Positions 16,654 to 63,237 of a DNA stretch of 64,000 bases are shown here, piece after piece. How positions within the stretch are numbered: position 1 is the stretch's first letter; every line of letters begins with the position of its first letter. The position numbers and the translations under genes were made by a program. The DNA is taken from NCBI GenBank assembly GCA_002441305.1, contig DJVT01000009.1, positions 12,839-76,838 of the forward strand, written 5' to 3'. The DNA comes from Candidatus Omnitrophica bacterium UBA6249 (lineage in GTDB: Bacteria > Omnitrophota > Gorgyraeia > Gygaellales > Profunditerraquicolaceae). The notes under the pieces were generated by a model that was not told where the DNA came from, searched no databases, and saw only the letters and a list, made by a program, of their open reading frames with translations.

Positions 16654-16700
16654 TTCTTTTCTAACCCTCTGAATATGAATACCTTGGATAAACTGTCTAC
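16647..16700 (+). repeat. Solo right arm of the two-box repeat (contains the MFS start codon)
   Basis: Inner GAGATAATTCTTTTCTAAC at 16647..16665, a 17-nt linker, then outer-like CTTGGATAAACTGTCTAC ending at 16700. No matching left arm is seen upstream. Confidence 0.6.
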
Positions 16701-25655: not shown

Positions 25656-25677
25656 AGAAGTTGAATAAACTGTCTAC
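25624..25677 (+). repeat. Solo right arm of the two-box repeat (spans the lipoyl-ligase-like/lipA junction)
   Basis: Inner GGAATGTTTGTTTTGTAAC at 25624..25642, a 17-nt linker, then outer-like GTTGAATAAACTGTCTAC ending at 25677. No matching left arm is seen upstream. Confidence 0.6.
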
Positions 25678-37370: not shown

Positions 37371-37375
37371 CAAAG

Positions 37376-37954
37376 ATGAAAATAGGCGTTATCGGCGGGA
37401 CGTTTAACCCCGTACATATAGGCCATCTGATACTTGCGGAAGAGGCAAGGGAAAAACTGGGGCTGGATAAGGTAATCCTTATCCCCACGGCTATGCCTCC
37501 GCATAAAGATGCCTCCGGGATCGCTCCCGCGGAAGACCGGCTTAAAATGCTTAAGCTGTCCGTAAAGGGGAATAAATTCTTCTCCGTTTCGGATATGGAG
37601 ATCAGGCGCCGGGGTCGTTCTTATACAATCGACACGCTGAGGGAGTTGAAACGCAGGTTTGCCCGCGATGAGATATATTTTATTATCGGGTCGGATCTGT
37701 TAAAGTACCTGAATGAGTGGAAAGACCTGGGGCAGATACTTGAGATGGTCAAGTTCGTCGCTGCGACGCGCCCGGGGTACCCTCTTGAGCAGATACCGGA
37801 TTGCATAGATACTATACCTATCCGAGCGGTGGATATTTCGGGTTTTGAGGTAAGAGAGTGTGTGCTTAAGGGCAGGTCGTTCCGTTACCTGGTACCCGAA
37901 GCAGTTTTTAACTACATAACCAAAAACAAACTGTACAGTAGACAGTTTACGTAA
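37376..37954 (+). CDS. nadD: Nicotinate-nucleotide adenylyltransferase
   Basis: GGTFNPVHIGH motif. ATG 37376 is preferred over the listed TTG 37367. The last 5 codons and the stop lie in the repeat outer box. Confidence 0.85.
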   Translation: MKIGVIGGTFNPVHIGHLILAEEAREKLGLDKVILIPTAMPPHKDASGIAPAEDRLKMLKLSVKGNKFFSVSDMEIRRRGRSYTIDTLRELKRRFARDEIYFIIGSDLLKYLNEWKDLGQILEMVKFVAATRPGYPLEQIPDCIDTIPIRAVDISGFEVRECVLKGRSFRYLVPEAVFNYITKNKLYSRQFT

Positions 37955-38060
37955 CTCTTTGATAATAATATTGTTACAAAACAAATATTCCCGGAACCTA
38001 CAAGGGGGTGTATTTCTTTTGTAACTATTGTATTTACATAATGTTATATAAACTGTCTAC
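37938..38060. repeat. Repeat unit A: empty two-box inverted-repeat element (123 bp palindrome-like)
   Basis: L arm: outer GTAGACAGTTTACGTAAC at 37938..37955, inner GTTACAAAACAAATATTCC at 37973..37991. A ~14-nt spacer follows. R arm: inner GGTGTATTTCTTTTGTAAC at 38007..38025, outer TTACATAA[TGTTATATAA]ACTGTCTAC at 38034..38060. Confidence 0.85.
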
Positions 38061-38069
38061 AATAATAGG

Positions 38070-38720
38070 ATGAAGATAAAAGTAGCGCCGTCAATACTGT
38101 CAGCTGATTTTGCCAATCTTGCCGCGGAGCTTAAGAAGATCGAGAAGGCGGGGGCGGATCTGGTGCATGTGGATATTATGGACGGCCACTTCGTGCCGAA
38201 TATAACCATAGGCCCGGTGGTGGTAAAATATATCCGCAAGGCGACAAGCCTTCCGCTGGATGTCCACTTGATGATCGAGAACCCGGCAAAATATATAGAC
38301 GCCTTTGTTTCTGCCGGAGCGGACATGATCACTGTGCACGTAGAGACGCTTACGCTTCGCACGCTGGCAGCGATAGCGGATGGCTTGAAGAAGAGAAAGG
38401 TTAAACTTGGCATCTCTTTGAATCCTCCGACGCCGTTCAGCAAAATTAAAAAGGCCCTGCCTTATGTAGATTTTGTCCTGGTAATGTCGGTGAATCCGGG
38501 TTTCGGCGGGCAGGCATTTATTCCGTCTGCTTTGGACAAGATAAGGCAGCTGCGCGTCGTCTTTAAGAAGGATATCGCCGTGGACGGCGGGATAAACAGC
38601 ATTACCGGTAAACTGGTCAGGGAGGCGGGGGCGAATGTCCTGGCCGCCGGTTCTTATATTTTCGGTGCCACAGACACTAAAAAAGCAATCAACAGTTTAA
38701 GAGAAGGAGAGCTTCGATGA
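38070..38720 (+). CDS. rpe: Ribulose-phosphate 3-epimerase
   Basis: APSILSADF, HVDIMDGHFVPN and MSVNPGFGGQ blocks. Confidence 0.9.
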   Translation: MKIKVAPSILSADFANLAAELKKIEKAGADLVHVDIMDGHFVPNITIGPVVVKYIRKATSLPLDVHLMIENPAKYIDAFVSAGADMITVHVETLTLRTLAAIADGLKKRKVKLGISLNPPTPFSKIKKALPYVDFVLVMSVNPGFGGQAFIPSALDKIRQLRVVFKKDIAVDGGINSITGKLVREAGANVLAAGSYIFGATDTKKAINSLREGELR

Positions 38721-40108
38721 GCAATGCAACTGCGCAAATCAAATTCGGGACCGATGGATGGAGGGCGATCATCGCCGATACCTATACCCTGGAGAACGTG
38801 AAGATATTGAGCCAGGCGGTGGCGGATTACCTGGGCAGCGGTAAAAAAGTGGCAGTGGGTTATGATACGCGTTTTATGTCCGCCAAATTCGCCGAGGCCG
38901 CCGGGGCAGTGTTGAAGAATAACGGCATGGAGGTGGTTCTTTCCGACAGGCCGACCCCTACGCCGGCATTGAGCTTTATCGTCAAATCCCGCAAGCTTGA
39001 CCTGGGGATTATGATTACCGCTTCGCATAACCCGGCCGAATATAACGGTTTCAAGATCAAGAATGCCGCAGGAGGCGGGGCGAGCCAGGAGCTGACCAGG
39101 CAGGTCGAGGCTTTATTATGCAAGAATCCGGTTAAGGATGCCGCTCTTGCCGAGCCTCTTGTTACGACGGATATTACCAAGGATTACATAAAATTCATCC
39201 GCGGTTATGTTGACCTTAAAAAAATCAAGAATAAGAAATTTAAAGTGCTGGTCGATTCCATGTACGGTTCGGGCGACAGCTTTATCGCCCAGGTGCTCAA
39301 AGGCACGAGCATTAAGCTGGAGTTTATGCGTAATACTATCAATCCCTCTTTTGGCGGGGGCAGGCCGGAGCCGATAGAGGAGAACTTGAAAGAGCTTAAG
39401 GAGCGCGTAAAAAAGGAGAAATTTGACCTGGGTATTGCCCTGGACGGGGATGCGGACAGGATTGCCGCGGTAGCCCCCGGAGGCGTGTTTATCCATCCGC
39501 AGAAAATACTGGGCTTGCTTGCCCTGCATTTGAACCAGGACCGTCACTGGAGCGGCGGGCTGGTCAAGACCATCTGCGGTACGACGATGATGGACAATAT
39601 CGCAAAATTCCTGGGGATCAAGCTTTACGAGACCCCGGTAGGGTTTAAATACATATCCAATCTTATGGAGACCGAGGATATCGTCGCCGGAGGTGAAGAG
39701 GCGGGCGGTATGGGCGTAAAAGGCTATATACCCGAGCGTGACGGGACTATGGCCGGGCTCCTGCTTATCGAGATGATGGTTTACCGCAACAAGAATATAC
39801 TCAAGATCCTGAATGAGACCGAGGAGAAATTCGGCAAATATTATTATGTGCGCCAGGATTTCCATCTGGCAAAAAGAGTGGAGCCGAAGAAAGAGAATCT
39901 TCCCGCCGAGCTCTTGGGCAAGAAGGTTGTCGACGTCAAAGATTACGACGGCGTGAAGCTGATCTGCGAGGATGAAAGCTGGCTGATGTTCCGCGGTTCC
40001 GGCACCGAGCCGATTATGCGTACCTACGCGGAGGCAAAAAGCCTGGCCCGGGCCAGGAAACTGCTCGCCGTGGGTAAAGAAATAATCCTTAAGGATGTAC
40101 AGATTTAG
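38717..40108 (+). CDS. Phosphoglucomutase/phosphomannomutase family protein
   Basis: Phosphoserine loop TASHNPAEYNGFK and Mg site LDGDADR. Confidence 0.85.
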   Translation: MSNATAQIKFGTDGWRAIIADTYTLENVKILSQAVADYLGSGKKVAVGYDTRFMSAKFAEAAGAVLKNNGMEVVLSDRPTPTPALSFIVKSRKLDLGIMITASHNPAEYNGFKIKNAAGGGASQELTRQVEALLCKNPVKDAALAEPLVTTDITKDYIKFIRGYVDLKKIKNKKFKVLVDSMYGSGDSFIAQVLKGTSIKLEFMRNTINPSFGGGRPEPIEENLKELKERVKKEKFDLGIALDGDADRIAAVAPGGVFIHPQKILGLLALHLNQDRHWSGGLVKTICGTTMMDNIAKFLGIKLYETPVGFKYISNLMETEDIVAGGEEAGGMGVKGYIPERDGTMAGLLLIEMMVYRNKNILKILNETEEKFGKYYYVRQDFHLAKRVEPKKENLPAELLGKKVVDVKDYDGVKLICEDESWLMFRGSGTEPIMRTYAEAKSLARARKLLAVGKEIILKDVQI

Positions 40109-40682
40109 CAGATTTATAATTCTGGTAATACTGAAGATTTTTTTCAGGTTCAAAGTGGAAGGCAGGGAGAACATCCCCGAAAGAGGAGGTTTTATTCTTG
40201 TCTCCAATCATATAAGCTATCTTGATCCGCCCGCCGTAGGTTCGGCCTGCCGGCGGCCGGTGCATTTTATAGCCAGGGATAACCTGTTCGATATCCCGTT
40301 GTTGAAATTCTGGCTTAAGGCGGTGGGGGTAATCCCGCTTAAAAGGGATTCCGCGGATACGTCCGCGATAAAGAAAGGATTGAAGGTTTTGCGTAACGGC
40401 GAGGGGCTTGCATTGTTTCCTGAGGGTACACGCAGGAGTAAAGAGGATAGATACTTGAATCCCGAGCCGGGAGCTGGTTTTTTGGCGGCAAAGGGAGGCG
40501 TGCCGGTAATCCCGGCATTTGTCTCCGGAACGGATGAAGCTTTGCCGCGCCATGCGCATTCGCTGCGTTTGACCAAGATACACGTGCGCCTGGGAAAAGA
40601 AATTCTTATAGAAAGGGGGAAGCCTTATCAGGAAATCTCCGACTTGATAATGGCTAAGATAAAAGAATTATCGAATAACTGA
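40095..40682 (+). CDS. plsC: 1-acyl-sn-glycerol-3-phosphate acyltransferase
   Basis: HX4D motif NHISYLD and FPEGTRR. Confidence 0.85.
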   Translation: MYRFSRFIILVILKIFFRFKVEGRENIPERGGFILVSNHISYLDPPAVGSACRRPVHFIARDNLFDIPLLKFWLKAVGVIPLKRDSADTSAIKKGLKVLRNGEGLALFPEGTRRSKEDRYLNPEPGAGFLAAKGGVPVIPAFVSGTDEALPRHAHSLRLTKIHVRLGKEILIERGKPYQEISDLIMAKIKELSNN

Positions 40683-40737
40683 TACGAAAAACGCATAGAA
40701 TAAAAAATAAAAATAAAAAGAAAGGAAGTATCTGAAA

Positions 40738-42282
40738 ATGTCAAGTACTACGAGAGAAGAATTGGAGCAGTTGTATAACCAGAGCATCAAAGAAATGAAA
40801 GAGGGCCAGGTGGTCACGGGTAAGATCGTGGGCATCAAGAATAAAGAGGTCCTGGTGGATGTCGGTTTTAAATCCGAAGGGATAGTCCCGATCACGGAGT
40901 TCAATACCGCTGACCTTGAGATGGGCAGAGAGATGGAGTTCCTCCTGGAGAATATGGAGAATGACGCCGGGGTAATGACCCTTTCCCGCGAGAAGGCGAT
41001 GCGTATGCAGGGCTGGGACAAGATCGTAAAGATCTCCAACGAAGGTTCCCTGGTGGAAGGCAAACCGGTCAAGAAGGTAAAGGGCGGTTTTCTCGTGGAT
41101 ATCATGGGTATCGAAGGCTTCCTGCCCAGTTCCTTGTCCGCTTTCCGCAATATACCCGATAAGGATATCCTGTATAAGGTATTCAAGTTCAAGATCGTCA
41201 AGGTAAACAACCTGCGCCGCAGCATCATCGTCAGCCGCCGTGAAGCGGTACAGGCGGACAGGGACTTGGCCAAGAGCAAGATCTGGAGCGAGCTTAAGAT
41301 CGGCAACATCTATCCCGGCACGGTCAAGGCGATTACCGATTTCGGAGCCTTCATCGACCTGGGCGGGGTGGACGGGCTTTTGCATATCACCGATATGTCC
41401 TGGTCCAAGATCAGCCATCCGAGCGAGATCGTGGCTATCGGGGACAAGATCGAGATCATGGTCCTGAATATGGACCAGGCCTCGGGCAAGGTATCCTTAG
41501 GCCTCAAGCAGAGGCAGGCGGATCCCTGGCAGGATATCGAGAACAAGTTCAGCGTCGGCGCCAAGGTTAAGGGCAAGGTGGTCAATATCCTTCCTTACGG
41601 TATCTTCGTGGAGCTGGAGAAGGGGATCGAGGGATTGGTGCATGTCTCGGAGATCTCCTGGACCAAGCGCGTGAACAATCCCGGAGAGATGTTCGCCGTA
41701 GGCGATATACTGGAGACCCAGATACTCAGCGTGGAGAAGGATTCGCGCAGGATATCCTTGAGCCTTAAACAGCTCGAGCAGAATCCGTGGACCGAGGCGG
41801 AAGCCAAGTACCCGGTGGGTTCCACTGTATCGGGCAAAGTGCGCGGTTTTACGGATTACGGCGCATTCGTGGAGCTGGATTCCAACCTGGAAGGGATGAT
41901 CCATGTTTCCGACCTTTCCTGGACCAAAAGGATCGGGCATCCGCAGGATGTATTGAAAAAAGGCCAGAAGGTGGACGTTTATGTACTTTCGGTCGATGCC
42001 TCAAGCCGCAGGATCGCCCTGGGGTTAAAACAGCTGCAGGAGAATCCCTGGCCGAAGATCGCCGAGAAGTATCCTCTGGATACGGTGTTGGAAGCCGAGG
42101 TATCCAGCATTACGGAGTTCGGGGTATTCGCGAATATCGACAGCGAGCTGGAAGGGTTGATTTATTCTAGCGAGATAGATAAAGAAGCGGTTGCCAACCT
42201 GAAACCGGGTGATAAGGTAAACGTCAAGATAATCAAGGTCGACGTGGAGCAGGCAAAAATCGGCCTGACTGCGCGCCTTTAA
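40738..42282 (+). CDS. rpsA: 30S ribosomal protein S1
   Basis: 514 aa made of six tandem S1 (OB) repeats. Confidence 0.9.
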   Translation: MSSTTREELEQLYNQSIKEMKEGQVVTGKIVGIKNKEVLVDVGFKSEGIVPITEFNTADLEMGREMEFLLENMENDAGVMTLSREKAMRMQGWDKIVKISNEGSLVEGKPVKKVKGGFLVDIMGIEGFLPSSLSAFRNIPDKDILYKVFKFKIVKVNNLRRSIIVSRREAVQADRDLAKSKIWSELKIGNIYPGTVKAITDFGAFIDLGGVDGLLHITDMSWSKISHPSEIVAIGDKIEIMVLNMDQASGKVSLGLKQRQADPWQDIENKFSVGAKVKGKVVNILPYGIFVELEKGIEGLVHVSEISWTKRVNNPGEMFAVGDILETQILSVEKDSRRISLSLKQLEQNPWTEAEAKYPVGSTVSGKVRGFTDYGAFVELDSNLEGMIHVSDLSWTKRIGHPQDVLKKGQKVDVYVLSVDASSRRIALGLKQLQENPWPKIAEKYPLDTVLEAEVSSITEFGVFANIDSELEGLIYSSEIDKEAVANLKPGDKVNVKIIKVDVEQAKIGLTARL

Positions 42283-42296
42283 AGTTAGAATGACTG

Positions 42297-42337
42297 CTGC
42301 CGCGGGCCGGGAATGTCCCGGTTCCGGCGGCAGTTTA
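42297..42337 (+). terminator. Possible intrinsic terminator after rpsA
   Basis: Nested GC-rich hairpin: CTGCCGC (42297..42303) pairs with GCGGCAG (42327..42333), and an inner CCGGGA/TCCCGG stem lies inside. It is followed by only a short TTTA run. Confidence 0.4.
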
Positions 42338-42343
42338 TAAAAG

Positions 42344-43510
42344 ATGAAAAACGTCGAAGAACAGCTTAAGCTTATCAGGCGCGGGGTAGTAGAGGTAATC
42401 TCCGGGGATGAATTGCGCAAGAAGCTTGAGTGGAGCGTTAAGTCCGGGCGCCCGTTGAAGGTAAAAGCGGGATTCGACCCTACCGCTCCTGACCTGCACC
42501 TGGGGCATACCGTGCTTCTGAGGAAGCTGCGCCAGTTTCAGGATCTGGGGCATGAGGTATATTTCCTGATCGGCGATTTTACCGGCCGTATAGGGGATCC
42601 CACAGGGCGTTCGGAGATCAGGAAACAGCTTACCAGGCAGGAGGTAGCCAAGAATGCCAGGACTTATAAGAAACAGGTTTCCAAGATCCTGGACGTAAAG
42701 AAGCTGAAGATAGTCTTTAACAGCAGGTGGTTTGAGCGCATGCAGGTAGCCGATATGCTCAAACTTACTACGCTTGCCTCGGTTTCCCAGATGCTTGCCC
42801 GGGAGGATTTCAAAAAGCGTTATTCCCAGGGCGAGAATATCTCCATCCTCGAGTTCATTTATCCTCTTATGCAAGGCTATGATTCGGTTATGCTCAAGGC
42901 AGATATCGAGCTCGGCGGGACGGACCAGATATTCAACCTTTTGGTAGGGCGCGACCTGCAAAAGGATTTTAACCAGCACCAGCAGGTGGTCCTGACCATG
43001 CCCCTCCTGGAAGGCACCGACGGCGTGCAGAAGATGAGCAAGTCGTACGGGAACTATATCGGCATAAACGAGACCGCAAAAGAAATGTTCGGCAAGGTGA
43101 TGTCGGTCTCCGATGAGCTGATGCTCAAGTACTACGAGCTGCTTACCGACGAGGACATGGATGCGGTAAAGAAGATGCATCCCAGGGAGGCCAAGGTAAA
43201 ACTGGCCAAGATTATCATTACGCAGTACCATTCGGCGCAGGCGGCAGAAAAAGAGGCGGCGGAGTTTACTCGCGTATTCTCCCAAAAGGAAGTGCCGCAG
43301 GATATGCCGGTTTTTAAGGCCAGCGGCAAAAAGAGCGTATTGGCTATCCTCCTGGAGAGCAAGCTTGTCGCCAGCGGCAACGAGGCGCGCCGCCTGATCA
43401 AGCAGGGCGCGGTAAGCTTCAACAACGTAAAAATAGACAAAGATGACTTTATCCCCGGCGAGCCGGGTATCCTCAAGGCCGGTTCCCGCCGCTTCCTCAA
43501 AATCCTGTAG
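42344..43510 (+). CDS. tyrS: Tyrosyl-tRNA synthetase
   Basis: HIGH-type [13 protein letters not shown], and a C-terminal S4-like domain. The TAG stop is the TAG of the repeat head GTAG. Confidence 0.9.
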
Positions 43511-43622
43511 ACAGTTTACGTAACTCCATATCCTTCACTTAGATCCAAAAGAAATATTCCCATACTTAAAAATAATTCCGTTAGACTCATCTTCCTTTTT
43601 CGTCAATTGCGGTAAAAGGAGG

Positions 43623-44315
43623 ATGACCATGCCGTCACATGCGCGCAGGCACCAGTTGCAGCAATCGTTGGTATATCATGCATTCAGCAGAAGCAGCGGG
43701 CGCAGGGAGATTTTTCATAACTCCCGGGACTTCGCATACTTCAAGAAATTAATCAAGGATTATACAGATAAATTTGGGATCAGTGTGTATCATTGGGTGA
43801 TCATGCCGAATCATTACCATCTTGTTCTTGAGCTTGATGTTCCTGAATCGATCTCCGGTTTTATGGCAGGATTGCACCGGGCGTATAGCCATTATTACTG
43901 CAGGAGATACGATACGGTGGGATTCTTGTGGCAGGGGAGATTCAAATTACAGCCGGTGCAGAAAGAGGCGTATTTGAAGAATTGCGGCAGGTATGTGGAA
44001 AGGAATCCGGTGCGTTCCGGGTTCGTTAAAGAGGCCTGTGAATATAACTATGGCAGCGCGCGATTCTATTGTTTGGGAGAAGAGGACGGGATAACAAAAA
44101 TGAGCCCTTATTTCGATGAATTCGGGAATAATATCAGGGCCAGGCAGGTGGCCTATAAAGAGTTCTTAAGCGTCCTTGACCGGGGGGATGAAGATCGTTT
44201 TTCCGGTGCGGGTATTATTTGCGGCGATAAGGTTTTTATCGGGAAACTGGTAAAAATGAACGGGCATTATTTTCCGAGAAGGAGCGGAAGAAGAAGGCTT
44301 TCTGGAGAGAGTTAA
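43623..44315 (+). CDS. REP-associated tyrosine transposase (RAYT; IS200-like Y1/HUH transposase family)
   Basis: HUH motif in MPNHYHLVL, WQGRF block, and the catalytic-Tyr context RYVERNPVR. AAAGGAGG RBS precedes the start. Confidence 0.8.
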   Translation: MTMPSHARRHQLQQSLVYHAFSRSSGRREIFHNSRDFAYFKKLIKDYTDKFGISVYHWVIMPNHYHLVLELDVPESISGFMAGLHRAYSHYYCRRYDTVGFLWQGRFKLQPVQKEAYLKNCGRYVERNPVRSGFVKEACEYNYGSARFYCLGEEDGITKMSPYFDEFGNNIRARQVAYKEFLSVLDRGDEDRFSGAGIICGDKVFIGKLVKMNGHYFPRRSGRRRLSGES

Positions 44316-44356
44316 TTTATCTTTATTTCCCCTCCGTTTGGATATATAATCAAAAC

Positions 44357-44626
44357 ATGTTCTGGACTTTTATCGGGGCGCTCGCCGCTACCTTAACCAT
44401 GTTTTCATTTATTCCCCAAATAGCCAAATCCATGCGGACAAGGTCTGTTAAAGATGTGAGCCCGGTTACTTTGTTCCAGCTTTCTACGGGAGTATTTCTC
44501 TGGATGGTGTATGGCTTTGCGCGCAAGGACCCTATAATAATCGGGGCTAACCTGATTACCTTCGCCAGCCTTACGGTGCTCATTTTCCTATACTTTAAAT
44601 ATAAAAGGATAAAAGTTTCTTCATAG
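44357..44626 (+). CDS. SemiSWEET / PQ-loop small membrane transporter
   Basis: 89 aa with three TM helices and a PQ motif (FIPQIAKS). Confidence 0.7.
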   Translation: MFWTFIGALAATLTMFSFIPQIAKSMRTRSVKDVSPVTLFQLSTGVFLWMVYGFARKDPIIIGANLITFASLTVLIFLYFKYKRIKVSS

Positions 44627-44700
44627 CCGGAGTATTTCTTTTACAACTTTATATAAATCAACGGATTACATAAACTGTCTACGGAGCTGCGGAGCAGGGG

Positions 44701-45564
44701 ATGAAGGGGATAATTTTAGCGGGGGGAAGGGCTACAAGATTATATCCGATCACCAAGAGTGTCTGTAAGCAGATGCTTCCTGTTTACGACAAGCCGATGA
44801 TATACTATCCTTTGTCGGTGTTGATGCTCGCCGGGATAAAGGACATCCTGCTTATCTCTTCCTCCAAAGAGCTCCCCAGGTTCAAGGACCTGCTGGGAAG
44901 CGGAAAAGACCTGGGCATCAGGATCTCTTATGCGGAGCAAAAAAAGCCGGAAGGGATCGCCCAGAGCCTGATTATAGCCGAGGATTTTATCGGCAGGGAC
45001 AGTATCTGTCTTATCCTGGGGGATAACATCTTCTACGGCTACAACCTGGTCAAACTTCTTCAGAACCACGCCAAATTGAAAAAGGGTGCGGTTGTCTTCG
45101 GCTACTGCGTGAAAGACCCCGCCCGCTACGGGGTATTCAAGTTCGACAAAAAAGGGCAAGTTGCCTCGATAGAAGAAAAACCCGCCCACCCCAAGTCCAG
45201 CTGGGCTGTTTCAGGGCTGTATTTTTACGACAACGATGCGCCTAAAATCGCCAAAAGGATAAAACCGTCCGCAAGGGGGGAGCTTGAAATTACCTCGGTA
45301 AATAATGAATATATAAAAAGAGGGGGGCTGAAGGCTGAGTTCCTCGGCCGGGGGCACGCCTGGCTCGATACAGGGACTTATGAATCCCTCATCGATGCCT
45401 CCGTGTTCATCAAGACCATCGAGGAGCGGCAAGGGCTGAAGATCGGGTGCATAGAAGAAGTCGCTTACCGGATGAAATATATAAACAAAGGCCAGCTTAT
45501 CAGGCTTGCAAAGAGGATGCCCGCTGCCTACGGGAACTATTTAAGGAACCTGTCCCGAGAGTGA
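44701..45564 (+). CDS. rfbA: Glucose-1-phosphate thymidylyltransferase
   Basis: GIILAGGRATRLYPIT N-terminus and RmlA-type blocks throughout. Confidence 0.9.
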   Translation: MKGIILAGGRATRLYPITKSVCKQMLPVYDKPMIYYPLSVLMLAGIKDILLISSSKELPRFKDLLGSGKDLGIRISYAEQKKPEGIAQSLIIAEDFIGRDSICLILGDNIFYGYNLVKLLQNHAKLKKGAVVFGYCVKDPARYGVFKFDKKGQVASIEEKPAHPKSSWAVSGLYFYDNDAPKIAKRIKPSARGELEITSVNNEYIKRGGLKAEFLGRGHAWLDTGTYESLIDASVFIKTIEERQGLKIGCIEEVAYRMKYINKGQLIRLAKRMPAAYGNYLRNLSRE

Positions 45565-46406
45565 GAAAAAACATACTTGTTTTAGGAAAAGGTTTTATCG
45601 GAGAAAGGATAGGCAGGGAGCTTGGCTGCCGGGTCTCCGGCGCAGTGATAAATTCTTTTAGCGATGCGGATAGGCTGCTCGGCCGCTACAGGCCTGAGAT
45701 AGTGATTAACTGCATCGGCTCCAGCGGAAGGCGCAATGTCGATGACTGCGAGGAGGATAAAGAGGCGACTTTGCTTGCCAACAGCTTTATTCCGTTGATG
45801 CTTGCCGAGGCCTGCCTGCGCCGGGGGATCAAGCTCGTGCATATCAGTACCGGCTGCATCTTCAATTTCGATTACAGAAAAGATAAGCCTATCAAAGAAG
45901 GGGAAAGGAATTATTTTCTCAAGCTGTTCTACAGCCGCAGCAAGATTTATTCCGAGGCCGCTCTCGAGGCCCTTTCTGCAAAAGCGGGCATACTTATCCT
46001 CAGGATCAGGATACCCTTGCTCGATGAAAGCCACCCCAGGAATATTCTGGACAAGCTTGTTAAATACGAAAAGATTGTCGATGTCCCAAACTCGGTGACC
46101 TATCTGCCTGATTTTATCAGGGCGTTAAAACATTTGATTGGGGTTGGCGCAGTAGGGGTGTATAATGTAGTGAATAAAGGCGGCCTGCGTTATTCCGAGC
46201 TGATGAAGGTTTACCGGAAGTATCTGCCCGGGCCGGATTTTAAGTTTGTCTCTGTGCGCAAACTTCCTTTAACCAGGACAAACCTGCTTTTGTCTGTCGC
46301 CAAGCTTGAGAGAACGGGTTTTAAGGTCAGAGATATCCATTCCGTTCTTGACGAATGCCTCAAGCATTATGTAGACAGTTTACGTAACCCTGTTAAACAT
46401 AAGTAA
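45561..46406 (+). CDS. RmlD-like NAD(P)-dependent sugar-nucleotide reductase (divergent dTDP-4-dehydrorhamnose reductase-like)
   Basis: Rossmann LVLGKGFIG and YxxxK as YSRSK. GTG 45561 overlaps the rfbA stop (GTGA). The listed ORF start 45447 overlaps rfbA. The last 11 codons run through repeat arm C. Confidence 0.5.
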   Translation: MRKNILVLGKGFIGERIGRELGCRVSGAVINSFSDADRLLGRYRPEIVINCIGSSGRRNVDDCEEDKEATLLANSFIPLMLAEACLRRGIKLVHISTGCIFNFDYRKDKPIKEGERNYFLKLFYSRSKIYSEAALEALSAKAGILILRIRIPLLDESHPRNILDKLVKYEKIVDVPNSVTYLPDFIRALKHLIGVGAVGVYNVVNKGGLRYSELMKVYRKYLPGPDFKFVSVRKLPLTRTNLLLSVAKLERTGFKVRDIHSVLDECLKHYVDSLRNPVKHK

Positions 46407-47483
46407 TTACAAAAGAAATATTATGGGGAAGAAAAGACACAGCAGCGTTTTAGTTACCGGCGGGGCCGGATTTATCGGCAGCGCCTTTGTCCGGCTTCTG
46501 GCGGAGCAGGGAGTTCCCGTTGCCGTCTTGGACAAGCTTACTTATTCGGGGGATCTGAAGCGCCTTGAAGGTACAGGCGGCAGGTTCAGGTTTTACAAAA
46601 CCGATATCTGTAATAAGAGGGCAGCAGGTGCGGTCTTTGCCAGCGAAAGGCCAGACACAGTGGTGCATTTTGCCGCAGAGAGCCATGTTGACCGCAGTAT
46701 CAAGGACGCTGCGCCATTTATCGAGACCAATATCAAGGGCACTCAGGTGCTTCTCGATGTAAGCCGTAAATACAGCGTAAACAGGTTTGTGTTTATTTCC
46801 AGCGATGAGGTCTATGGAGAGATTGCCGACGGTAAGTTTAAAGAGGACTTTCCCCTTAAACCGAACAGCCCTTATGCCGCATCCAAGGCTGCGGCGGATC
46901 TCCTGGTGCAGGCTTATATCAGGACGAATAAATTTCCCGCGATAATCGTAAGGCCGTCAAATACCTATGGCCCATGGCAATACCCGGAAAAGCTGATCCC
47001 GCTTGCCATACTCAGGATACTCGGGAAGGAAAAAGTTCCGGTTTACGGGAAAGGCAAGAATATACGCGAATGGCTGTATATCGACGATTGCGTGCGCGGT
47101 ATCGCGGAAATTATGGACAAAGGCAGGCTCGGGCAGATCTATAATCTGGGCGGTTCATGCGAAAGCAGGAATATAGATACGGTCAAACTTCTCTTGAGGC
47201 TGCTCGGGGAAAAGGCGGACAGGTTCAAATTTGTGAAAGACCGGCCGGGCCATGATATAAGATACAGCTTAAACTCCGGGAAGGCGGCGAAAGAACTCGG
47301 CTGGAGGCCTAAGGTAAAACTTGCCGAAGGGCTTAAATCGACCGTAGCCTGGTCGCTCGGCCACAGGGATTGGCTGAAGAGTAAGCTGGCGGACGTAAAC
47401 AAACTGTACGGTAAATAGTGCTGCGATAGGGAATGTTTCTTTTGTAACTTTATAATATCAAGCTGGTTACATAAACTGTCTAC
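46371..47483. repeat. Repeat unit C: rfbB bracketed by the two-box inverted arms
   Basis: L outer GTAGACAGTTTACGTAAC at 46371..46388; L inner TTACAAAAGAAATATT at 46407..46422, abutting ATG 46423. R inner GGAATGTTTCTTTTGTAAC at 47430..47448; R outer GTTACATAAACTGTCTAC at 47466..47483. Confidence 0.75.
46423..47418 (+). CDS. rfbB: dTDP-glucose 4,6-dehydratase
   Basis: TGGAGFIGS, HFAAESHVDRS, SSDEVYG and YAASKAAAD. Confidence 0.9.
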   Translation: MGKKRHSSVLVTGGAGFIGSAFVRLLAEQGVPVAVLDKLTYSGDLKRLEGTGGRFRFYKTDICNKRAAGAVFASERPDTVVHFAAESHVDRSIKDAAPFIETNIKGTQVLLDVSRKYSVNRFVFISSDEVYGEIADGKFKEDFPLKPNSPYAASKAAADLLVQAYIRTNKFPAIIVRPSNTYGPWQYPEKLIPLAILRILGKEKVPVYGKGKNIREWLYIDDCVRGIAEIMDKGRLGQIYNLGGSCESRNIDTVKLLLRLLGEKADRFKFVKDRPGHDIRYSLNSGKAAKELGWRPKVKLAEGLKSTVAWSLGHRDWLKSKLADVNKLYGK

Positions 47484-47487
47484 AAAA

Positions 47488-48552
47488 ATGGCAACGGTTA
47501 TTGTTACAGGTTCATGCGGGTTAATCGGTTCTGAGACGGTAAGCTTCTTTGCCGACAAGGGCTTCGATATCGTCGGTATCGATAACAATATGCGCAGGAA
47601 TTTCTTCGGCTCCGACGGTTCGGTGCTCTGGAACCGGAAACGCCTGCAGAAGCTGCATAAGAATTACCGCCATTATTCCGTGGATATCCGGGATTCCGGT
47701 AAAATAAATTCTTTGTTCAAGAAATACTCCAAAGACATAGCCCTGATCGTGCATGCGGCTGCCCAGCCTTCGCATGACTGGGCGGCAAGGGATCCTGAGG
47801 TTGACTTCGGGGTGAATGCCCAGGGGACGCTGGTCATGCTTGAGGCCGCGCGTAAGTTTTCTCCGTGGGCAGTATTTATCTTTACTTCTACGAACAAGGT
47901 CTACGGCGATACGCCGAACCGCCTGCCGCTGGTTGAGAAAGAGAAGCGTTTTGAGATTGCCGACAGCCATCAGTATTCCAAAGGCATAGATGAATCCATG
48001 AGCATAGATAACTGCCTGCATTCCGTGTTTGGCGCTTCCAAGGTTGCCGCCGATATCATGGTGCAGGAGTACGGCAAATATTTCCATCTGCGCACAGGCG
48101 TATTCCGCGGGGGCTGCCTTACCGGCCCGGCGCACTCCGGGGCGGAGCTGCACGGTTTTCTGTCCTACCTGGTGAAATGCTGCGTGACCGGACGCAAATA
48201 CAAAATCTACGGTTACAAAGGAAAGCAGGTCAGGGACAATATCCATTCTTACGACCTGGTGAATGCCTTTTACCATTATTTCCAGAATCCACGCTGCGGA
48301 GAGGTTTACAATATGGGCGGCGGCAGGTTTGCCAATGTTTCCATCCTTGAGGCCATCGAGTTGTGCGAGAAATTAAGCGGCAGCAGGCTGTCTTATGACT
48401 ATGTAGACACCAACCGTATCGGAGACCATATCTGGTGGGTAAGCGACGTCTCCAAATTCAAGTCGCACTATCCTTCCTGGCAGTATGCCTTCAATATTGA
48501 ATCCACTCTTTCCCAAATCATAGACAGTGTACGTAACTCCATAAAATACTAA
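47488..48552 (+). CDS. NAD-dependent epimerase/dehydratase (CDP-paratose 2-epimerase-like)
   Basis: Rossmann TGSCGLIGS and [12 protein letters not shown]. The expected YxxxK reads FGASK. The last 10 codons run through repeat arm D. Confidence 0.65.
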
Positions 48553-49204
48553 TAGTTACAAAACAATTATTCCATGATGCTGCGTTAGATTATTCCTCTT
48601 TCTGCGTCTATTGACGTTAGAAAGGAGAGAATATGAGTAAAAGAATAGCTTCTGTGGAGGTTGTGGCGGGTAAGATTATATTACTAAGAGGGAAAAGGGT
48701 AATGTTGGATTCTGACTTAGCGGAGCTATATGGGGTAAAAACATTTAACTTTAACAAAGCCGTTAAACGCAATATAAGGCGTTTCCCGGAAGATTTTATG
48801 TTTCAACTTACCACGGAGGAATATAGGAACTTGATATTCCAAAATGGAAGGTCAAGATGGGGCGGCAGGCGATATGCTCCTTATGTTTTTACTGAGCAAG
48901 GCGTAGCCATGTTATCCAGCGTGCTCAAATCGAAGCGGGCTATTGAAGTTAACATAGCAATAATGCGTGCTTTCGTGAAGTTACGGGAGTTATTATTGAC
49001 ACATAAAGAATTAGCAAAAAAGATTGAGGAGTTAGAGCGTAAGTACCAACTGCATGAAACGGACATTCAGACAATATTTGAGGTAATTAAAAAACTTCTT
49101 GAGCCTCCGCAGAAACCTCCTAAACCGCGATTCGATATAAATTAATGATACGAATAGATTTTTTATAATTTCATAGGAATGATAAGGTTACGTAAACTGT
49201 CTAC
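48520..49204. repeat. Repeat unit D: ORF6N-domain gene bracketed by the two-box inverted arms
   Basis: L outer ATAGACAGTGTACGTAAC at 48520..48537; L inner GTTACAAAACAATTATTCC at 48555..48573. R inner (degenerate) GAATAGATTTTTTATAAT at 49152..49169; R outer GTTACGTAAACTGTCTAC at 49187..49204. Confidence 0.75.
48633..49145 (+). CDS. ORF6N-domain (KilA-N-related DNA-binding) protein
   Basis: [18 protein letters not shown]...[21 protein letters not shown]...[18 protein letters not shown] is the typical ORF6N pattern. C-terminal coiled coil. Confidence 0.7.
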
Positions 49205-49211
49205 ATAAATA

Positions 49212-49240
49212 TTGACAGGGAGAGGGGATGAAAGTAAGAT
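49212..49240 (+). promoter_or_regulatory. Possible sigma70-like promoter for the 49272 gene
   Basis: TTGACA (49212..49217), 17-nt spacer, TAAGAT (49235..49240), just after the R outer box of unit D. Confidence 0.35.
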
Positions 49241-49271
49241 AAATAAATAAACTTTAGCTAAGGGCAGATAG

Positions 49272-50315
49272 ATGAGATATAGAAACATACTGATTACCGG
49301 AGGGGCCGGGTTCGCGGGGAGCAACCTGGCTGTGTATTTTAAAGAGAGGTATCCTAAAACAGAAGTCTTTTCCCTGGATAACCTTGTCCGAAGGGGCAGT
49401 GAATTCAACCTTCCCAGGCTAAAGAAGGCCGGGGTTAAGTTTATCCGGGGAGACGTCAGGCGGCCAAAAGACCTTGATTTTATACCCGGTATCGACCTGG
49501 TGATAGAATGCTCTGCCGAGCCCTCGGTTTTGGCAGGATATGAAAAGCCCGCTTATATTATCGATACCAACTTGAACGGTACGGTAAACTGCCTTGAGTT
49601 TTGCCGCAGACGCAAAGCGGATATTATCTTTATCTCCACCAGCAGGGTATACCCTTACGACAGGATAAACGCGATCGGGCGCAGAGAGAAGGCAACCCGG
49701 TTTGAATGGAAGGATTTTTCCGGAGTTGGAACGGGTTTTCCGCTCACCGGCCTGCGCACATTGTATGGGGCGACCAAGCTTTCCTCGGAACTTATCCTCC
49801 AGGAGTATGCGGCGGCATACGGGTTTAAATCGGTAGTCAACCGTTGCGGGGTGCTGGCCGGGCCGTGGCAGTTCGGCAAAGTTGATCAGGGGGTATTTAC
49901 ATACTGGATGCTGGCGCACTATTTCAAAAGGCCGCTTAAATATATCGGCTTTGGCGGCGAGGGCAAGCAGGTGCGCGACCTCCTGCACGTAGATGACCTG
50001 TGCAGCCTGGTGGATATGCAGGCGGGTATCCTGGATAAAATAAACGGCAATACGTATAATGTCGGCGGGGCGGGCGAGGTGAACCTTTCTCTCCTTGAGG
50101 CCACCGGATTATGCCGCAAGATCACCGGCAACAAGATCAAAATCGGCAGCGATAAACGCAACCGCCCGGGAGATATCGCAATCTACATTACGGATAATCG
50201 TGAAGTTACCCGGCAGCTAAAGTGGAAGCCTCGCAAGCAGCCTGTTGCGATCCTGAAAGATATCTTCGGCTGGATCAGGAGGCATGAGCCGATGCTGAAG
50301 AAGCTGATAATGTAG
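49272..50315 (+). CDS. NAD-dependent epimerase/dehydratase (CDP-paratose/tyvelose 2-epimerase-like)
   Basis: ITGGAGFAGSNL, YGATK and SLDNLVRRGS blocks. The TAG stop is the TAG of the repeat head GTAG. Confidence 0.65.
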   Translation: MRYRNILITGGAGFAGSNLAVYFKERYPKTEVFSLDNLVRRGSEFNLPRLKKAGVKFIRGDVRRPKDLDFIPGIDLVIECSAEPSVLAGYEKPAYIIDTNLNGTVNCLEFCRRRKADIIFISTSRVYPYDRINAIGRREKATRFEWKDFSGVGTGFPLTGLRTLYGATKLSSELILQEYAAAYGFKSVVNRCGVLAGPWQFGKVDQGVFTYWMLAHYFKRPLKYIGFGGEGKQVRDLLHVDDLCSLVDMQAGILDKINGNTYNVGGAGEVNLSLLEATGLCRKITGNKIKIGSDKRNRPGDIAIYITDNREVTRQLKWKPRKQPVAILKDIFGWIRRHEPMLKKLIM

Positions 50316-50638
50316 ACAGTTTATGTAACTCTATGATAATATAGCAGTTACAAGATAAATATTACCGGTTTAAACACAGCAGGAGGCTATCGGGGAGGGC
50401 GCATGAGCGACGAAGGCGGGTTCCTGGTGAAGTTTGACAACAAAAAATCGCTTCGTTGTTACAAGATTGAATTCGATTACGATGAATACCGGTATGTGAT
50501 TAACGGCAAGGAAAAACACAAGCTTCCCCCGCGTGTAAAAGAGATCAATATCAAGGTCGAAGGTTAGCTGCCGGCGTATCAGGAGGAGTAATTCTTTTGT
50601 AACCTATGAGGCCTTAGATAGTTACGTAAACTGTCTAC
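50312..50638. repeat. Repeat unit E: 54-codon ORF bracketed by the two-box inverted arms
   Basis: L outer GTAGACAGTTTATGTAAC at 50312..50329; L inner GTTACAAGATAAATATTACC at 50347..50366. R inner GGAGTAATTCTTTTGTAAC at 50585..50603; R outer GTTACGTAAACTGTCTAC at 50621..50638. Confidence 0.75.
50403..50567 (+). CDS. Small hypothetical protein (54 aa) inside repeat unit E
   Basis: Translated by hand: MSDEGGFLVKFDNKKSLRCYKIEFDYDEYRYVINGKEKHKLPPRVKEINIKVEG. AGGAGG/GGGAGGG lie upstream. It is not in the ORF track and I recognise no homology. Confidence 0.3.
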   Translation: MSDEGGFLVKFDNKKSLRCYKIEFDYDEYRYVINGKEKHKLPPRVKEINIKVEG

Positions 50639-50653
50639 AGCATACACAAAGAT

Positions 50654-52291
50654 ATGAAGATTGCGATTTTACAACTTAACTTTACCGTCGGCGACATTAC
50701 CGGCAACGCTGAGAAGATTATTTCAGCCGTGAAGGATGCGGCTTCCTCTGGCGTAGACTTGTTTATCACCTCCGAGCTTGCCCTGACAGGCTATCCGCCG
50801 AGAGACCTGCTTTTAAATAAGTCTTTTATCGAAAAGACCTGGCAGGCGGCTTCAGTCCTGGCCAAGAGTCTGTCAGGTTATCCGCCGCTTCTTCTTGGCG
50901 TGCCCGAGGCGAATACTTCAGGAGGAGGCAAGCCTCTCTATAATTCCGCAGCACTCTTAAAAGACGGAGCGGTATCCCGGGTCTTCAGGAAAACCCTTTT
51001 GCCCACTTACGACGTATTCGACGAATACCGCTATTTTGAGCCGGCCGAACCTTCAGCCGCCCTTGAATTAAGCGGGCTCAAGATCGGCGTTACTATTTGC
51101 GAAGACATTTGGAACGACAGGGATTGTTCGCCCCTGCATCTTTATAAGCTCGACCCGCTCGAAAAACTTTTCTCTTCCGGCATAGACTGTATCGTCAACA
51201 TATCTGCTTCTCCGTTTTTCCTGGGCAAACAGAAGATCAGGGAGGAGATGCTGGGTAAAATCGCCGCCAAATACAAGATTCCCCTGGTTTACGTAAACCA
51301 GTGCGGAGGCAACGATGATTTGGTGTTTGACGGCAGGAGCTGCGTTTTTTCCGCCGATGGCAAATTGGCCAGCCGGGCAAAGCCGTTTAGCGAAGATACC
51401 CTTATCGTAGATGTGCCGGGCTCATCCGGGCGCAGAGAGCCGTATATTGAACTTCCGGAGGAGGAAATCTGGGAGGCGCTGGTTTCCGGGACAAGGGATT
51501 ATGCCGCAAAGTGCGGTTTTAAGAAAGTCCTGCTGGGCCTTTCCGGGGGCATAGACTCCGCGCTTACCGCCGCAATCGCCGCGGAGGCGTTAGGCAAAGA
51601 GAATGTATTTGGCGTCCTTCTTCCTTCTCCTTATTCCAGTAAAGGGAGTATCGATGATGCGCTCGCCCTGGCCAGGGGGTTGGGGATTAAGGAACTCAAG
51701 GTCCCGATTAAAGGCGTGATGTCCGCTTTTGCCAAAGCCTTGCGCCCTGCCTTCAGAGGCTGCAGGAAGGATACCACCGAGGAGAATATCCAGTCCCGCA
51801 TAAGAGGCAACATACTTATGGCGCTCTCCAACAAGTACGGAGCGCTCCTTTTGACTACCGGCAATAAATCCGAGCTTGCCGTCGGCTACTGCACTATTTA
51901 CGGGGATATGTCCGGCGGCCTTGCGGTCATCGCCGACGTGAGTAAAACTATGGTCTACCGTATCGCCAATTGGCTGAACCAAAAAAAAGGCGGCATCATA
52001 CCGCAGAATTCCATCGACAAGCCGCCGTCTGCCGAACTGCGCCCCAACCAGACAGACCAGGACAGCCTTCCGCCGTATGAAATCCTTGATAAGATCCTTT
52101 ATAACTACATAGAGCTGCATAAAAGCGCCGAGGAAATAACAGAAATGGGCTTTGACAAAGAAACTGTGGTAAAGGTTTTATCTCTGGTCAAGAAAGCCGA
52201 ATTCAAACGCAAGCAGGCCGCACCCGGCATCAAGATTACCGATTGCGCCTTTGGCACAGGTTGGCGCATGCCTATTGCGGCAAAGAAGTAA
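50654..52291 (+). CDS. nadE: Glutamine-dependent NAD+ synthetase
   Basis: N-terminal CN-hydrolase domain (GVTICEDIW) plus a C-terminal NAD synthetase with the PP-loop SGGIDS. Confidence 0.9.
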   Translation: MKIAILQLNFTVGDITGNAEKIISAVKDAASSGVDLFITSELALTGYPPRDLLLNKSFIEKTWQAASVLAKSLSGYPPLLLGVPEANTSGGGKPLYNSAALLKDGAVSRVFRKTLLPTYDVFDEYRYFEPAEPSAALELSGLKIGVTICEDIWNDRDCSPLHLYKLDPLEKLFSSGIDCIVNISASPFFLGKQKIREEMLGKIAAKYKIPLVYVNQCGGNDDLVFDGRSCVFSADGKLASRAKPFSEDTLIVDVPGSSGRREPYIELPEEEIWEALVSGTRDYAAKCGFKKVLLGLSGGIDSALTAAIAAEALGKENVFGVLLPSPYSSKGSIDDALALARGLGIKELKVPIKGVMSAFAKALRPAFRGCRKDTTEENIQSRIRGNILMALSNKYGALLLTTGNKSELAVGYCTIYGDMSGGLAVIADVSKTMVYRIANWLNQKKGGIIPQNSIDKPPSAELRPNQTDQDSLPPYEILDKILYNYIELHKSAEEITEMGFDKETVVKVLSLVKKAEFKRKQAAPGIKITDCAFGTGWRMPIAAKK

Positions 52292-58207: not shown

Positions 58208-59689
<1,482 letters not shown>

Positions 59690-59705
<16 letters not shown>

Positions 59706-63232: not shown

Positions 63233-63237
63233 AATAA

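Follow-up and report, generated by a model that had tools for sequence, protein, structure and literature searches.

A family of 52–55-nt repeat arms supplies stop codons and C-terminal tails to host genes in a 64,000-nt stretch of the Candidatus Omnitrophica bacterium UBA6249 genome (contig DJVT01000009.1 of assembly GCA_002441305.1, positions 12,839 to 76,838; hereafter the window). The arms are best read as the ends of small non-autonomous elements, particular to Candidatus Omnitrophota, that resemble repetitive extragenic palindromic (REP) sequences and their inverted doublets (REPINs), accompanied by a gene of the REP-associated tyrosine transposase (RAYT) type, with the overlap with gene ends arising from survival of the tolerable insertions and subsequent erosion of the boundary; we put the probability of this reading at roughly three in four. 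The overlap itself needs no assumed host function.

Ten copies of an 18-nt box, GTAGACAGTTTACGTAAC, lie across 37.9–50.6 kb of the window, each with zero to two mismatches; when up to three mismatches were allowed, the window held 11 matches as compared to none in 100 shuffled versions. By repeat finding and profile search, each box was recognised as the outer end of a longer arm, in which ~17 variable nt separate the outer box, (G/A)TAGACAGTTTAYGTAAC, from an inner one, GTTACAAAASAAATATT. A profile search of the window with nhmmer returned 11 strong arms and a weak one. Over 37.9–50.6 kb the ten arms alternate strictly between the + strand (left or L arms) and the – strand (right or R arms).

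In line with what an earlier note on this DNA had claimed from the letters alone—that every left arm provides the stop codon or the C-terminal tail of the upstream gene—all five + strand arms contain such a stop, at exactly the coordinates given there. TAG at box positions 2–4 terminates tyrS and the epimerase gene starting at 49272, to which the arm contributes just the stop and, before it, the third base of the last sense codon, and TAA at box positions 15–17 terminates nadD. The third frame of the box, encoding V/IDSL/VRN, is read by the rmlD-like gene (VDSLRN...; the reading frame ends ...HYVDSLRNPVKHK at 46406) and by the epimerase gene starting at 47488 (IDSVRN...), each with a stop 8–11 codons after entry. 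Pfam and NCBIfam searches identified the genes of this region as nadD, tyrS, rfbA, a weakly matching rmlD-like member of the short-chain dehydrogenase/reductase (SDR) family, rfbB, two SDR epimerases and nadE. Among 119 unique arms, TAG at positions 2–4 and TAA at positions 15–17 are conserved in 93–100% of cases. As both stops are near-invariant and the third frame, open through VDSLRN, leads into a variable stretch rich in A+T, any open reading frame (ORF) entering the box will stop at once, after five codons, or after about 8–11 codons.

A wider sample, which includes relatives, comprised 43 arms whose outer box faces the 3′ end of a gene. The stop codon lies within the arm in 25 of these, at most 10 nt upstream in nine, and 17–58 nt upstream in the remaining nine. 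TAG accounts for 15 of the 25 in-arm stops (nine of them at a single orthologous tyrS junction), TAA for four and the third frame for six. The three reading-frame usages noted earlier recur, all of them, at unrelated junctions in other genomes.

Alignment of the five proteins with their orthologues located the point at which homology stops, and for the rmlD-like protein and the 47488 epimerase this point is the box. In six syntenic genomes free of an arm at this site, the rmlD-like protein ends ...SVLEECVKEYLKS and the rfbB start lies within its last 10 codons. The window protein is homologous up to ...SVLDECLKHY and then continues as VDSLRNPVKHK. About 100 of the 120 closest database homologues end ...ECVKEYLKS or in a one-residue variant of EYLKS at a length of 273 aa, compared to 281 aa (8 aa longer) in the window. 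A few homologues end ...KAY/RQST, ...VRS/RRQST or ...KAY/RQCT; the DNA of two loci from relatives (L169 and L171; L numbers denote such loci throughout) shows an L arm at the rmlD/rfbB junction that is read in the second frame of the box, with differing registers. For the 47488 epimerase, arm-free orthologues end ...TIKQIFEETRGRN (KQIFEETRGRN), ...TIKQIFDAQA or ...TIKQIYEAQSK, those of L016 and L145, which do carry the arm, end ...KQIHDNY/RQST, and the window protein runs to ...TLSQI, followed by a 10-residue repeat-encoded tail.

At the other three genes, the place of the stop varies among orthologous junctions. Three genomes share an orthologous nadD–doublet–rpe arrangement, in which nadD stops 9 nt short of the box (L004), on the box TAG (L086) or on the box TAA (window). 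The 49272 epimerase is arm-free in L038, where it ends ...AKLRKL, and has its native TAA one nucleotide before the box in L014 (CTATAAT/ATAG). The window retains this TAA, but out of frame (cTGATAATGTAG; CTGATAATGTAG), so the protein ends ...KKLIM at the box TAG. Besides the window, at least 10 genomes or metagenome contigs have the box TAG as their tyrS stop, with variable tails of 2–5 residues after ...RRFLK; the tyrS stop of L069 is 55 nt upstream. The locus L170 (Ga0416708_000069), syntenic with 40–50 kb of the window, has neither the transposase gene nor the arm at this junction, and its tyrS ends ...RRFLKVEK, 8 nt before the gene for a SemiSWEET protein. Other arms of L170 are missing or degenerate (GTAAACAGCCTGCAT... 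at rmlD/rfbB, a truncated outer box before the ORF6N gene, and three changes in an R arm); at this one locus, the pattern fits decay of the repeats in the absence of their enzyme. The repeat-encoded protein termini proposed in the earlier note are therefore real, with orthologue homology ending exactly at the box, and the box does not stem from conserved coding sequence.

Why gene ends should be affected follows from the geometry of the genome. Arm-bearing junctions of 69–126 nt consist of the arm or arms plus a few nucleotides, which bears out the suggestion that the units fill essentially the whole intergenic space. At 50 arm-free junctions of the window, the median spacer is 3.5 nt, 70% of spacers measure at most 20 nt and many genes overlap. 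Empty orthologous sites are similarly tight: rmlD and rfbB overlap, rfbB and the epimerase gene are 2 nt apart, tyrS and the SemiSWEET gene 8 nt, and neighbouring genes generally overlap or are separated by 2–10 nt. In a minimal model, inserts land at random and are retained provided that at most 3–11 C-terminal codons are lost; 50–70% of the retained inserts then supply the stop, and in the wider sample about half do (25 of 43). Spacers are this small and two frames of the box contain a stop, so a survival filter combined with boundary erosion is expected to leave arms overlapping gene ends. Of the two routes named in the earlier note, by which the units were either targeted to or selected at gene ends, selection together with erosion is therefore sufficient, and targeting is not needed, given the lack of a target motif and the 50–70% predicted by the model.

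In mechanistic terms, the arms would be moved or copied by the transposase as single-stranded DNA without target duplication, by analogy with TnpA-REP and the IS200/IS605 enzymes. An insert of 55–120 nt at a junction of ~0–10 nt would survive if the upstream ORF remained nearly whole and the start of the downstream gene were spared, and because survival requires near-intact flanking genes, survivors sit on or beside a stop codon. The back-up stops of the box would then render indels at the boundary, or loss of the native stop, harmless, and the boundary could erode until the arm provides the stop or the tail. The nadD and 49272 series document this capture of stops by small indels after insertion just behind the native stop codon. 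Thereafter, arms would persist at the same junctions for long periods.

The assignment to a REP-like system draws on the distribution and composition of the family, which occurs as inverted doublets of 119–139 bp, as single arms and as inverted flanks of a Y1/HUH transposase gene. Scanning ~185,000 species genomes with the box yielded 95 loci, and a scan of metagenomes added further copies. The 27 loci that come from ~17 metagenome-assembled genomes (MAGs) of Candidatus Omnitrophota carry full arms without exception (27/27), whereas the other 68, from other taxa, match in the seeded 17-mer alone, save for one partial match. All unique arms (119–128) share one architecture, whose conservation sets in abruptly at position 1 and ends near position 52. 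The terminus reads GTAG, with G at position 1 in 82% and A in 18% of 119 unique arms and TAG at positions 2–4 in 97–98%; upstream of the box nothing is conserved apart from a T at –1 in 50%. Around the 19 distinct doublets, a search for target duplications found no flanking direct repeat in 13 and repeats of 1–4 nt, inconsistent in length, in the remainder. A miniature inverted-repeat transposable element (MITE) of the DDE type was accordingly rejected, there being no target duplication of fixed length among the 19. The window doublet at 37938–38060 folds at –21.7 kcal/mol (z = –5.0 relative to shuffled sequences).

For all 23 members of the transposase family that were compared, the best NCBIfam match is REP_Tyr_transpos (NF047646; E about 1e-18), and the sole PDB match is E. 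coli TnpA-REP (4ER8; profile E 4.9e-5), with the HUH and Y..NPV motifs aligned. H64-Y-H66 and Y124 (within ...RYxERNPV...) are invariant in the 23 homologues, and the enzyme is closer to TnpA-REP than to the IS200/IS608 TnpA proteins. By sequence, the family is related to RAYT but divergent. More than 300 homologues of ~228 aa exist; among the 120 listed, all with a named source come from Omnitrophota except one labelled ‘bacterium’, and each listed homologue cluster occurs on 1–4 contigs. The gene directly follows tyrS, a position it holds in more than 10 genomes. An L arm, the transposase gene and an inverted R arm succeed each other in L008, L016, L022, L038, L069, L090 and L093 (syntenic MAG loci), in L169 and in at least one metagenome contig, L097; in the window, the proximal R arm of the transposase gene is missing and the next R arm comes only after the SemiSWEET gene.

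The transposase gene can itself be closed by an arm. The relatives’ protein ends ...RKAAIFVL, the last five to six codons and the TAA (of GTAAC) being part of the R arm’s inner box (L016 2270–2339, L008 5235–5301, L022 2140–2207, L090 2090–2158). The window copy lost this R arm (44316–44356 region) and ends ...RRLSGES, with the SemiSWEET gene directly after it. As to the origin of the arm, a 53-nt ‘mini’ element at 3480–3532 of L068 has two outer boxes facing each other across one variable segment (GTAAACAGTTTATATAAC...GTTACATAAACTGTCTAC), which suggests that the inner box could be a degenerate inverted copy of the outer box.

Several observations weigh against this reading. The window transposase scores 66.8 bits with NF047646, below the curated cut-off of 80 for the RAYT family, and the ~228-aa proteins exceed the 146–165 aa of characterised RAYTs by a C-terminal extension of ~65–85 aa that the latter lack. 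Ten single arms folded no better than shuffled sequences (z from –2.2 to +1.4, mostly about 0), and the idea of each arm as a classical REP stem-loop or terminator was dropped when DNA folding gave no stable hairpin. A palindrome within the arm (positions 8–18 against 36–45; 71% of cells pairable vs. 30–43% in slid registers) exists at the level of the consensus, and covariation within it was not significant. Copy number looks low (tens), and 10 of the 12 window arms are found no more than ~7 kb from the transposase gene, most of them among dTDP-sugar/polysaccharide genes, a clustering that suggests local spread or local tolerance. The contig L126, from a 99%-identical strain, has every arm at the same place as the window, with 7 differences in 434 arm nt vs. 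143 in 14,052 nt overall and no recent insertion or loss. Moreover, several junctions are conserved across species and mobility was never directly observed; the elements may be nearly immobile or exapted. Five stop overlaps out of five in the window are somewhat above the expectation of the insertion model (p about 0.03–0.18). A caveat on the overlap itself is that a quick stop is automatic once an ORF has entered the box.

On a rival view, the arms would be host-selected ‘punctuation’, namely sites bound by a host protein or the domesticated transposase, or sites of RNA processing or stability, that regulate the flanking cistrons, their overlap with genes serving translation uncoupling or attenuation in the manner of E. 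coli REPs near stop codons. At orthologous junctions of genomes whose proteins are merely 65–80% identical, conservation of the boxes far exceeds that of the sequence around them, several species share such junctions (nadD/rpe, tyrS/RAYT, before the SemiSWEET gene, before the 47488 epimerase, after a 497-aa gene), R arms replace the downstream Shine-Dalgarno sequence and the doublet forms a long hairpin. Recognition by a transposase explains the box conservation equally well, however, and syntenic relatives that agree in gene order differ in which arms they carry. The box offset is not constant at one junction, and the arms of L170, with no transposase at the locus, look decayed or lost; these findings speak against a function required at every site. 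A scan for promoters and terminators over 37–52 kb stayed at chance level (22 vs. 18.4 and 16 vs. 17.4 in shuffled sequence, respectively), as did a TAGACA-N16–18-(A/T-rich) promoter-like match inside several arms, and an Rfam scan of the whole window matched no family; we consider host-selected regulatory sites unlikely. That the transposase itself aims at stop codons or the 3′ ends of genes, for example by inserting 3′ of a short motif akin to the TTAC of IS608, is quite unlikely, too. Arms at the rmlD/rfbB junction occur in three registers across lineages (KHY/VDSLRN, KAY/RQST, VRS/RRQST), which could reflect repeated hits, TAG is the commonest frame (15 of 25 in-arm stops) and a T precedes half of the boxes. 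Beyond this weak T at –1, though, there is no upstream motif, nine of the 15 TAG cases represent one orthologous tyrS junction, register differences may also result from boundary indels as in the nadD and 49272 series, and arms face gene starts about as often as gene ends (39 vs. 45).

The strict + – alternation over 10 arms, expected by chance with a probability of 2 × 0.5^10 (about 0.002), would be natural for recombination sites of a cassette or inversion system, be it integron-like or based on invertible segments. Accessory genes beside the arms (ORF6N in the window; BrnT/BrnA, helix-turn-helix (HTH) antitoxin-like and Zeta-toxin-like genes in relatives) could be taken the same way, as could the copies of the transposase’s L arm and leader carried by the ORF6N unit and a toxin-antitoxin-like unit. 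Yet rfbB, a core pathway gene situated between an L and an R arm, is ancestral at its position, arms occur alone in relatives (R only in L022 and L145, L only in L169 and L171), and the alternation is lost in others (L R R L in L016, + + + + in L083). None of ~11 syntenic genomes has an inverted segment and the annotated locus ORFs include no integrase or invertase, making such a system highly improbable. More specific variants were each discarded: L...R pairs as cargo-carrying mobile units, in the case of rfbB, on account of its ancestral position and the occurrence of either arm alone in relatives; integron attC cassettes, as no integrase was found among the annotated locus ORFs, genes split the arm halves where each cassette should be followed by an intact site, and GTAAC/GTTAC departs from the RYYYAAC/GTTRRRY core; and invertible segments or a shufflon, all arm-bounded segments having the same orientation in ~11 syntenic genomes. 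A broader scheme, in which arms and leader would make up a transposase-dependent HUH-enzyme cassette system that punctuates the operon, captures or exchanges accessory modules (ORF6N, BrnTA, toxin-antitoxin-like, Zeta-toxin-like) at gene junctions and is selected in Omnitrophota, is a long shot; were it true, cutting and rejoining would leave host genes functional thanks to the built-in stops and, in places, starts (lipA, the transporter gene described below, rfbB). Finally, the box could derive from a conserved C-terminal coding motif such as VDSLRN that was copied around, in keeping with two paralogous SDR-family genes of the window ending in V/IDSL/VRN. This has next to no probability: the search for VDSLRN in arm-free orthologues, suggested earlier as the decisive comparison, found none that ends so, ~100 of 120 rmlD-like orthologues end ...EYLKS, arm-free epimerase tails are unrelated, and the box abuts the 3′ and 5′ ends of unrelated genes in three frames and on both strands.

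On the opposite side of the units, the next ATG follows the outer end of R arms by 4–18 nt in four cases and by 67 nt in one, so that the description of right arms as abutting the next start codon holds. R arms take the place of the native Shine-Dalgarno sequence of the downstream gene (relatives, AAGGAGTAATATG; window, CTGTCTACAAAAATG). Start codons may also lie within or at an arm. The ATG used by rfbB in arm-free relatives persists in the window, where it opens an 11-codon ORF (46355–46387; MPQALCRQFT) ending at the box TAA. The window rfbB has its start at 46423, where the arm finishes on its inner side, and its N-terminus is MGKKRHSS vs. MRKRIPK in arm-free relatives. At the lipB/lipA junction, the inner half of the arm encodes the tail ...ERNVCFVTQGI of lipB (24894–25655), and the one start codon ahead of the conserved LipA motif KPEWLKKK is an ATG within the arm, at 25652, the Pfam LIAS_N match setting in at residue 10. 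LipA thus probably begins with the arm-encoded MKKLNKLST (MKKLNKLST/KPEWL; predicted start peptide MKKLNKLSTKPEWLK). A gene for a major facilitator superfamily (MFS) transporter (413 aa, MFS_1 match) has its ATG in the weak arm and an N-terminus, MNTLDKLST, that mirrors the one of LipA; its start codon, too, is probably inside an arm.

Coordinates of the arms, of the transposase gene and its leader, and of the five genes that stop within an arm (window positions; the outer box begins at the first position of each + strand arm, and the outer end of each – strand arm is its last position)
Feature	Position	Strand	Remarks
Weak diverged arm	16647..16700	–	nhmmer E 0.015; contains MFS transporter ATG 16675
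Single additional arm, lipB/lipA junction	25624..25677	–	nhmmer E 4e-9; outside 37.9–50.6 kb
nadD	37367..37954	+	NCBIfam nicotinate-nucleotide adenylyltransferase, 212 bits; ends ...KLYSRQFT; last 4–5 codons and stop in L arm 1
L arm 1	37938..37992	+	Outer box 37938–37955; nadD stop TAA (37952–37954) inside; encodes tail (S)RQFT
R arm 1	38006..38060	–	With L arm 1 a 123-bp inverted doublet, REPIN-like; rpe ATG 9 nt beyond outer end
tyrS	42344..43510	+	TIGR00234, 378 bits, residues 3–387 of 388; stop TAG 43508–43510 within GTAG 43507–43510
L arm 2	43507..43560	+	GTAG head supplies tyrS TAG; left flank of RAYT-like gene
Conserved leader, L arm 2 to transposase gene	43561..43622	+	GTTAGAyT ... 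CGTCAATT ... AAGGAG; 11-genome alignment and leader comparison
RAYT-like Y1/HUH transposase gene	43623..44315	+	ORF of 230 aa (228 aa in databases); Pfam Y1_Tnp 4e-15
R arm 2	44628..44682	–	rfbA ATG 18 nt past outer end; inner end 1 nt after SemiSWEET stop
rmlD-like SDR gene	45558..46406	+	281 aa, true start near 45561; last 11 codons and stop in L arm 3
L arm 3	46371..46422	+	Encodes rmlD-like tail VDSLRNPVKHK and stop; rfbB ATG (46423) directly at inner end
R arm 3	47429..47483	–	Epimerase ATG 47488 after 4 nt; replaces AAGGAG-TAA-T-ATG junction of arm-free relatives
NAD-dependent epimerase/dehydratase gene	47488..48552	+	Last 10 codons and stop in L arm 4
L arm 4	48520..48573	+	Head ATAG; encodes 10-residue tail of 47488 epimerase
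R arm 4	49151..49204	–	Downstream of ORF6N gene; 49272 ATG after 67 nt
NAD-dependent epimerase/dehydratase gene	49272..50315	+	Stop TAG 50313–50315 from GTAG at 50312 (L arm 5)
L arm 5	50312..50366	+	TAG in GTAG head is the stop of the 49272–50315 epimerase
R arm 5	50584..50638	–	nadE (NAD synthase) ATG 50654 after 15 nt

The leader of the transposase gene is not confined to it. A similar stretch of ~60 nt (motifs GTTAGAyT ... CGTCnATTG ... AAGGAG) follows the L arm before the ORF6N gene (window 48574–48632), and in relatives the leader precedes a toxin-antitoxin-like module with an HTH antitoxin, as if L arm and leader formed a reusable left end; copies outside the window are those at L170 5985–6050, L090 2783–2860 and, on the reverse strand, L130. 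Just downstream of the transposase gene, arm-bounded junctions of relatives contain accessory genes for BrnT/BrnA, an HTH_3 antitoxin-like protein or a Zeta-toxin-like P-loop protein (L016 2397–2913, L038, L022, L090 2208–3242 and 5341–6100, L069, L093); the setting of the ORF6N gene (48633–49145) in the window is comparable. Between L arm 5 and R arm 5, a 54-aa ORF (50403–50567; MSDEGGFLVKFDNKKSLRCYKIEFDYDEY...) matched no Pfam family and has a ~52% identical counterpart in the same arm-bounded position of L014 (1392–1556). The 9-mer ACACAGCAG follows both L arm 3 and L arm 5. A good sigma-70-like promoter match (TTGACA-17-TAAGAT, 10/12) is located at 49212–49240, in the 67 nt that separate R arm 4 from the 49272 epimerase gene; this spacer is nearly identical in L170. 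Apart from the arms, G+C content drops from ~0.50 to 0.33–0.39 over the last 5 kb of the window (59000–64000), where GC skew is high; this segment may be a foreign or glycan-related island.

Codons of repeats are found within host proteins in several known systems, including the palindromic elements of Rickettsia, the Correia elements of Neisseria and enterobacterial MITEs, whose frames are open or close quickly. Unlike these coding repeats, most of which are internal and in frame or are DDE-type MITEs with target duplications, the arms affect protein termini, show no duplication and have a Y1/HUH partner. In E. coli, REPs within ~15 nt of a stop codon reportedly stall terminating ribosomes. 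The arms likewise lie on or after a stop, and a comparable consequence is conceivable for the five genes of the window; single arms, by contrast, are not predicted to form stable hairpins.

The closest parallel is offered by the GTAG REPs and REPtrons (PMC3733652; Messing et al. 2012, PMC3479197; PMC8266576), which share with the arms the terminal GTAG, the occurrence as singletons and inverted dimers, a Y1/HUH gene bracketed by inverted copies, the location at 3′ ends of co-directional genes and the use of TAG as a stop. In particular, the termini of GTAG REPs were found often to provide the TAG stop codon of flanking ORFs, with REPs <20 bp from 3′ ends and between co-directional genes (Di Nocera et al. 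2013, BMC Genomics 14:522, PMC3733652), and GTAG acts as a guide tetranucleotide in the choice of the TnpA-REP cleavage site (Corneloup et al. 2021, PMC8266576). GTAG repeats were known previously in members of the PVC superphylum. Yet classical REPs are stem-loops of 20–40 nt, whereas the arms measure 52–55 nt and combine two boxes, a variable segment fixed at ~17 nt and a weak palindrome; besides TAG, the arms supply another stop of their own (TAA) and, repeatedly, a tail in the third frame, and their ~228-aa transposase, with its C-terminal extension, falls below the RAYT cut-off. Di Nocera et al. (PMC3733652) further treated RAYT genes, mentioned the Rickettsia elements (RPEs), and described a variant with long inverted repeats (TIRYT). 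The TIRYT and TIR families resemble the present one in their Y1 genes with long inverted repeats and in their moderately abundant, dimer-organised repeats; as the arms carry GTAG and a palindrome at consensus level, they stand between the REP and TIR categories.

The REPIN–RAYT systems of Pseudomonas and enterobacteria (Bertels and Rainey 2011, PMC3116915; Bertels et al. 2017, PMC5581495) are alike in their hairpin-forming inverted doublets, in a transposase that occurs on 1–4 contigs per listed cluster and in a fixed neighbourhood, in the long persistence of the repeats and in their apparent decay without the transposase (L170). They differ in that copies in Omnitrophota apparently number tens rather than hundreds and cluster by the transposase gene, where vertical inheritance is deduced from synteny alone. 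In the literature searched, no paper joined ‘Omnitrophota’ with ‘repetitive extragenic palindromic’. Stop codons supplied by repeats have been documented since 2013, a principle that is unchanged here. What is new is the family of two-box, 52–55-nt arms with its divergent 228-aa RAYT-like enzyme in Omnitrophota, the service of a further box stop and of a third-frame tail that recurs, and the long-term reliance of tyrS on a repeat-borne stop codon.

For annotation of Omnitrophota genomes, protein tails such as VDSLRN..., RQFT and RQST should be regarded as repeat-derived, and start codons inside arms need care. The series of nadD, rmlD-like and two epimerase junctions allows insertion, boundary erosion and decay to be traced. 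An essential gene, tyrS, stops on the TAG of the repeat’s GTAG in at least 11 of the examined genomes and metagenome contigs, the C-termini of three enzymes include 4–11 repeat-encoded residues, and in relatives the transposase-like gene itself ends in the repeat. If our preferred reading is right, REP/RAYT-type systems would extend to Candidatus Omnitrophota, and the window would represent a clean, orthologue-verified case of a REP-type repeat absorbed into the host genes of a very compact genome.

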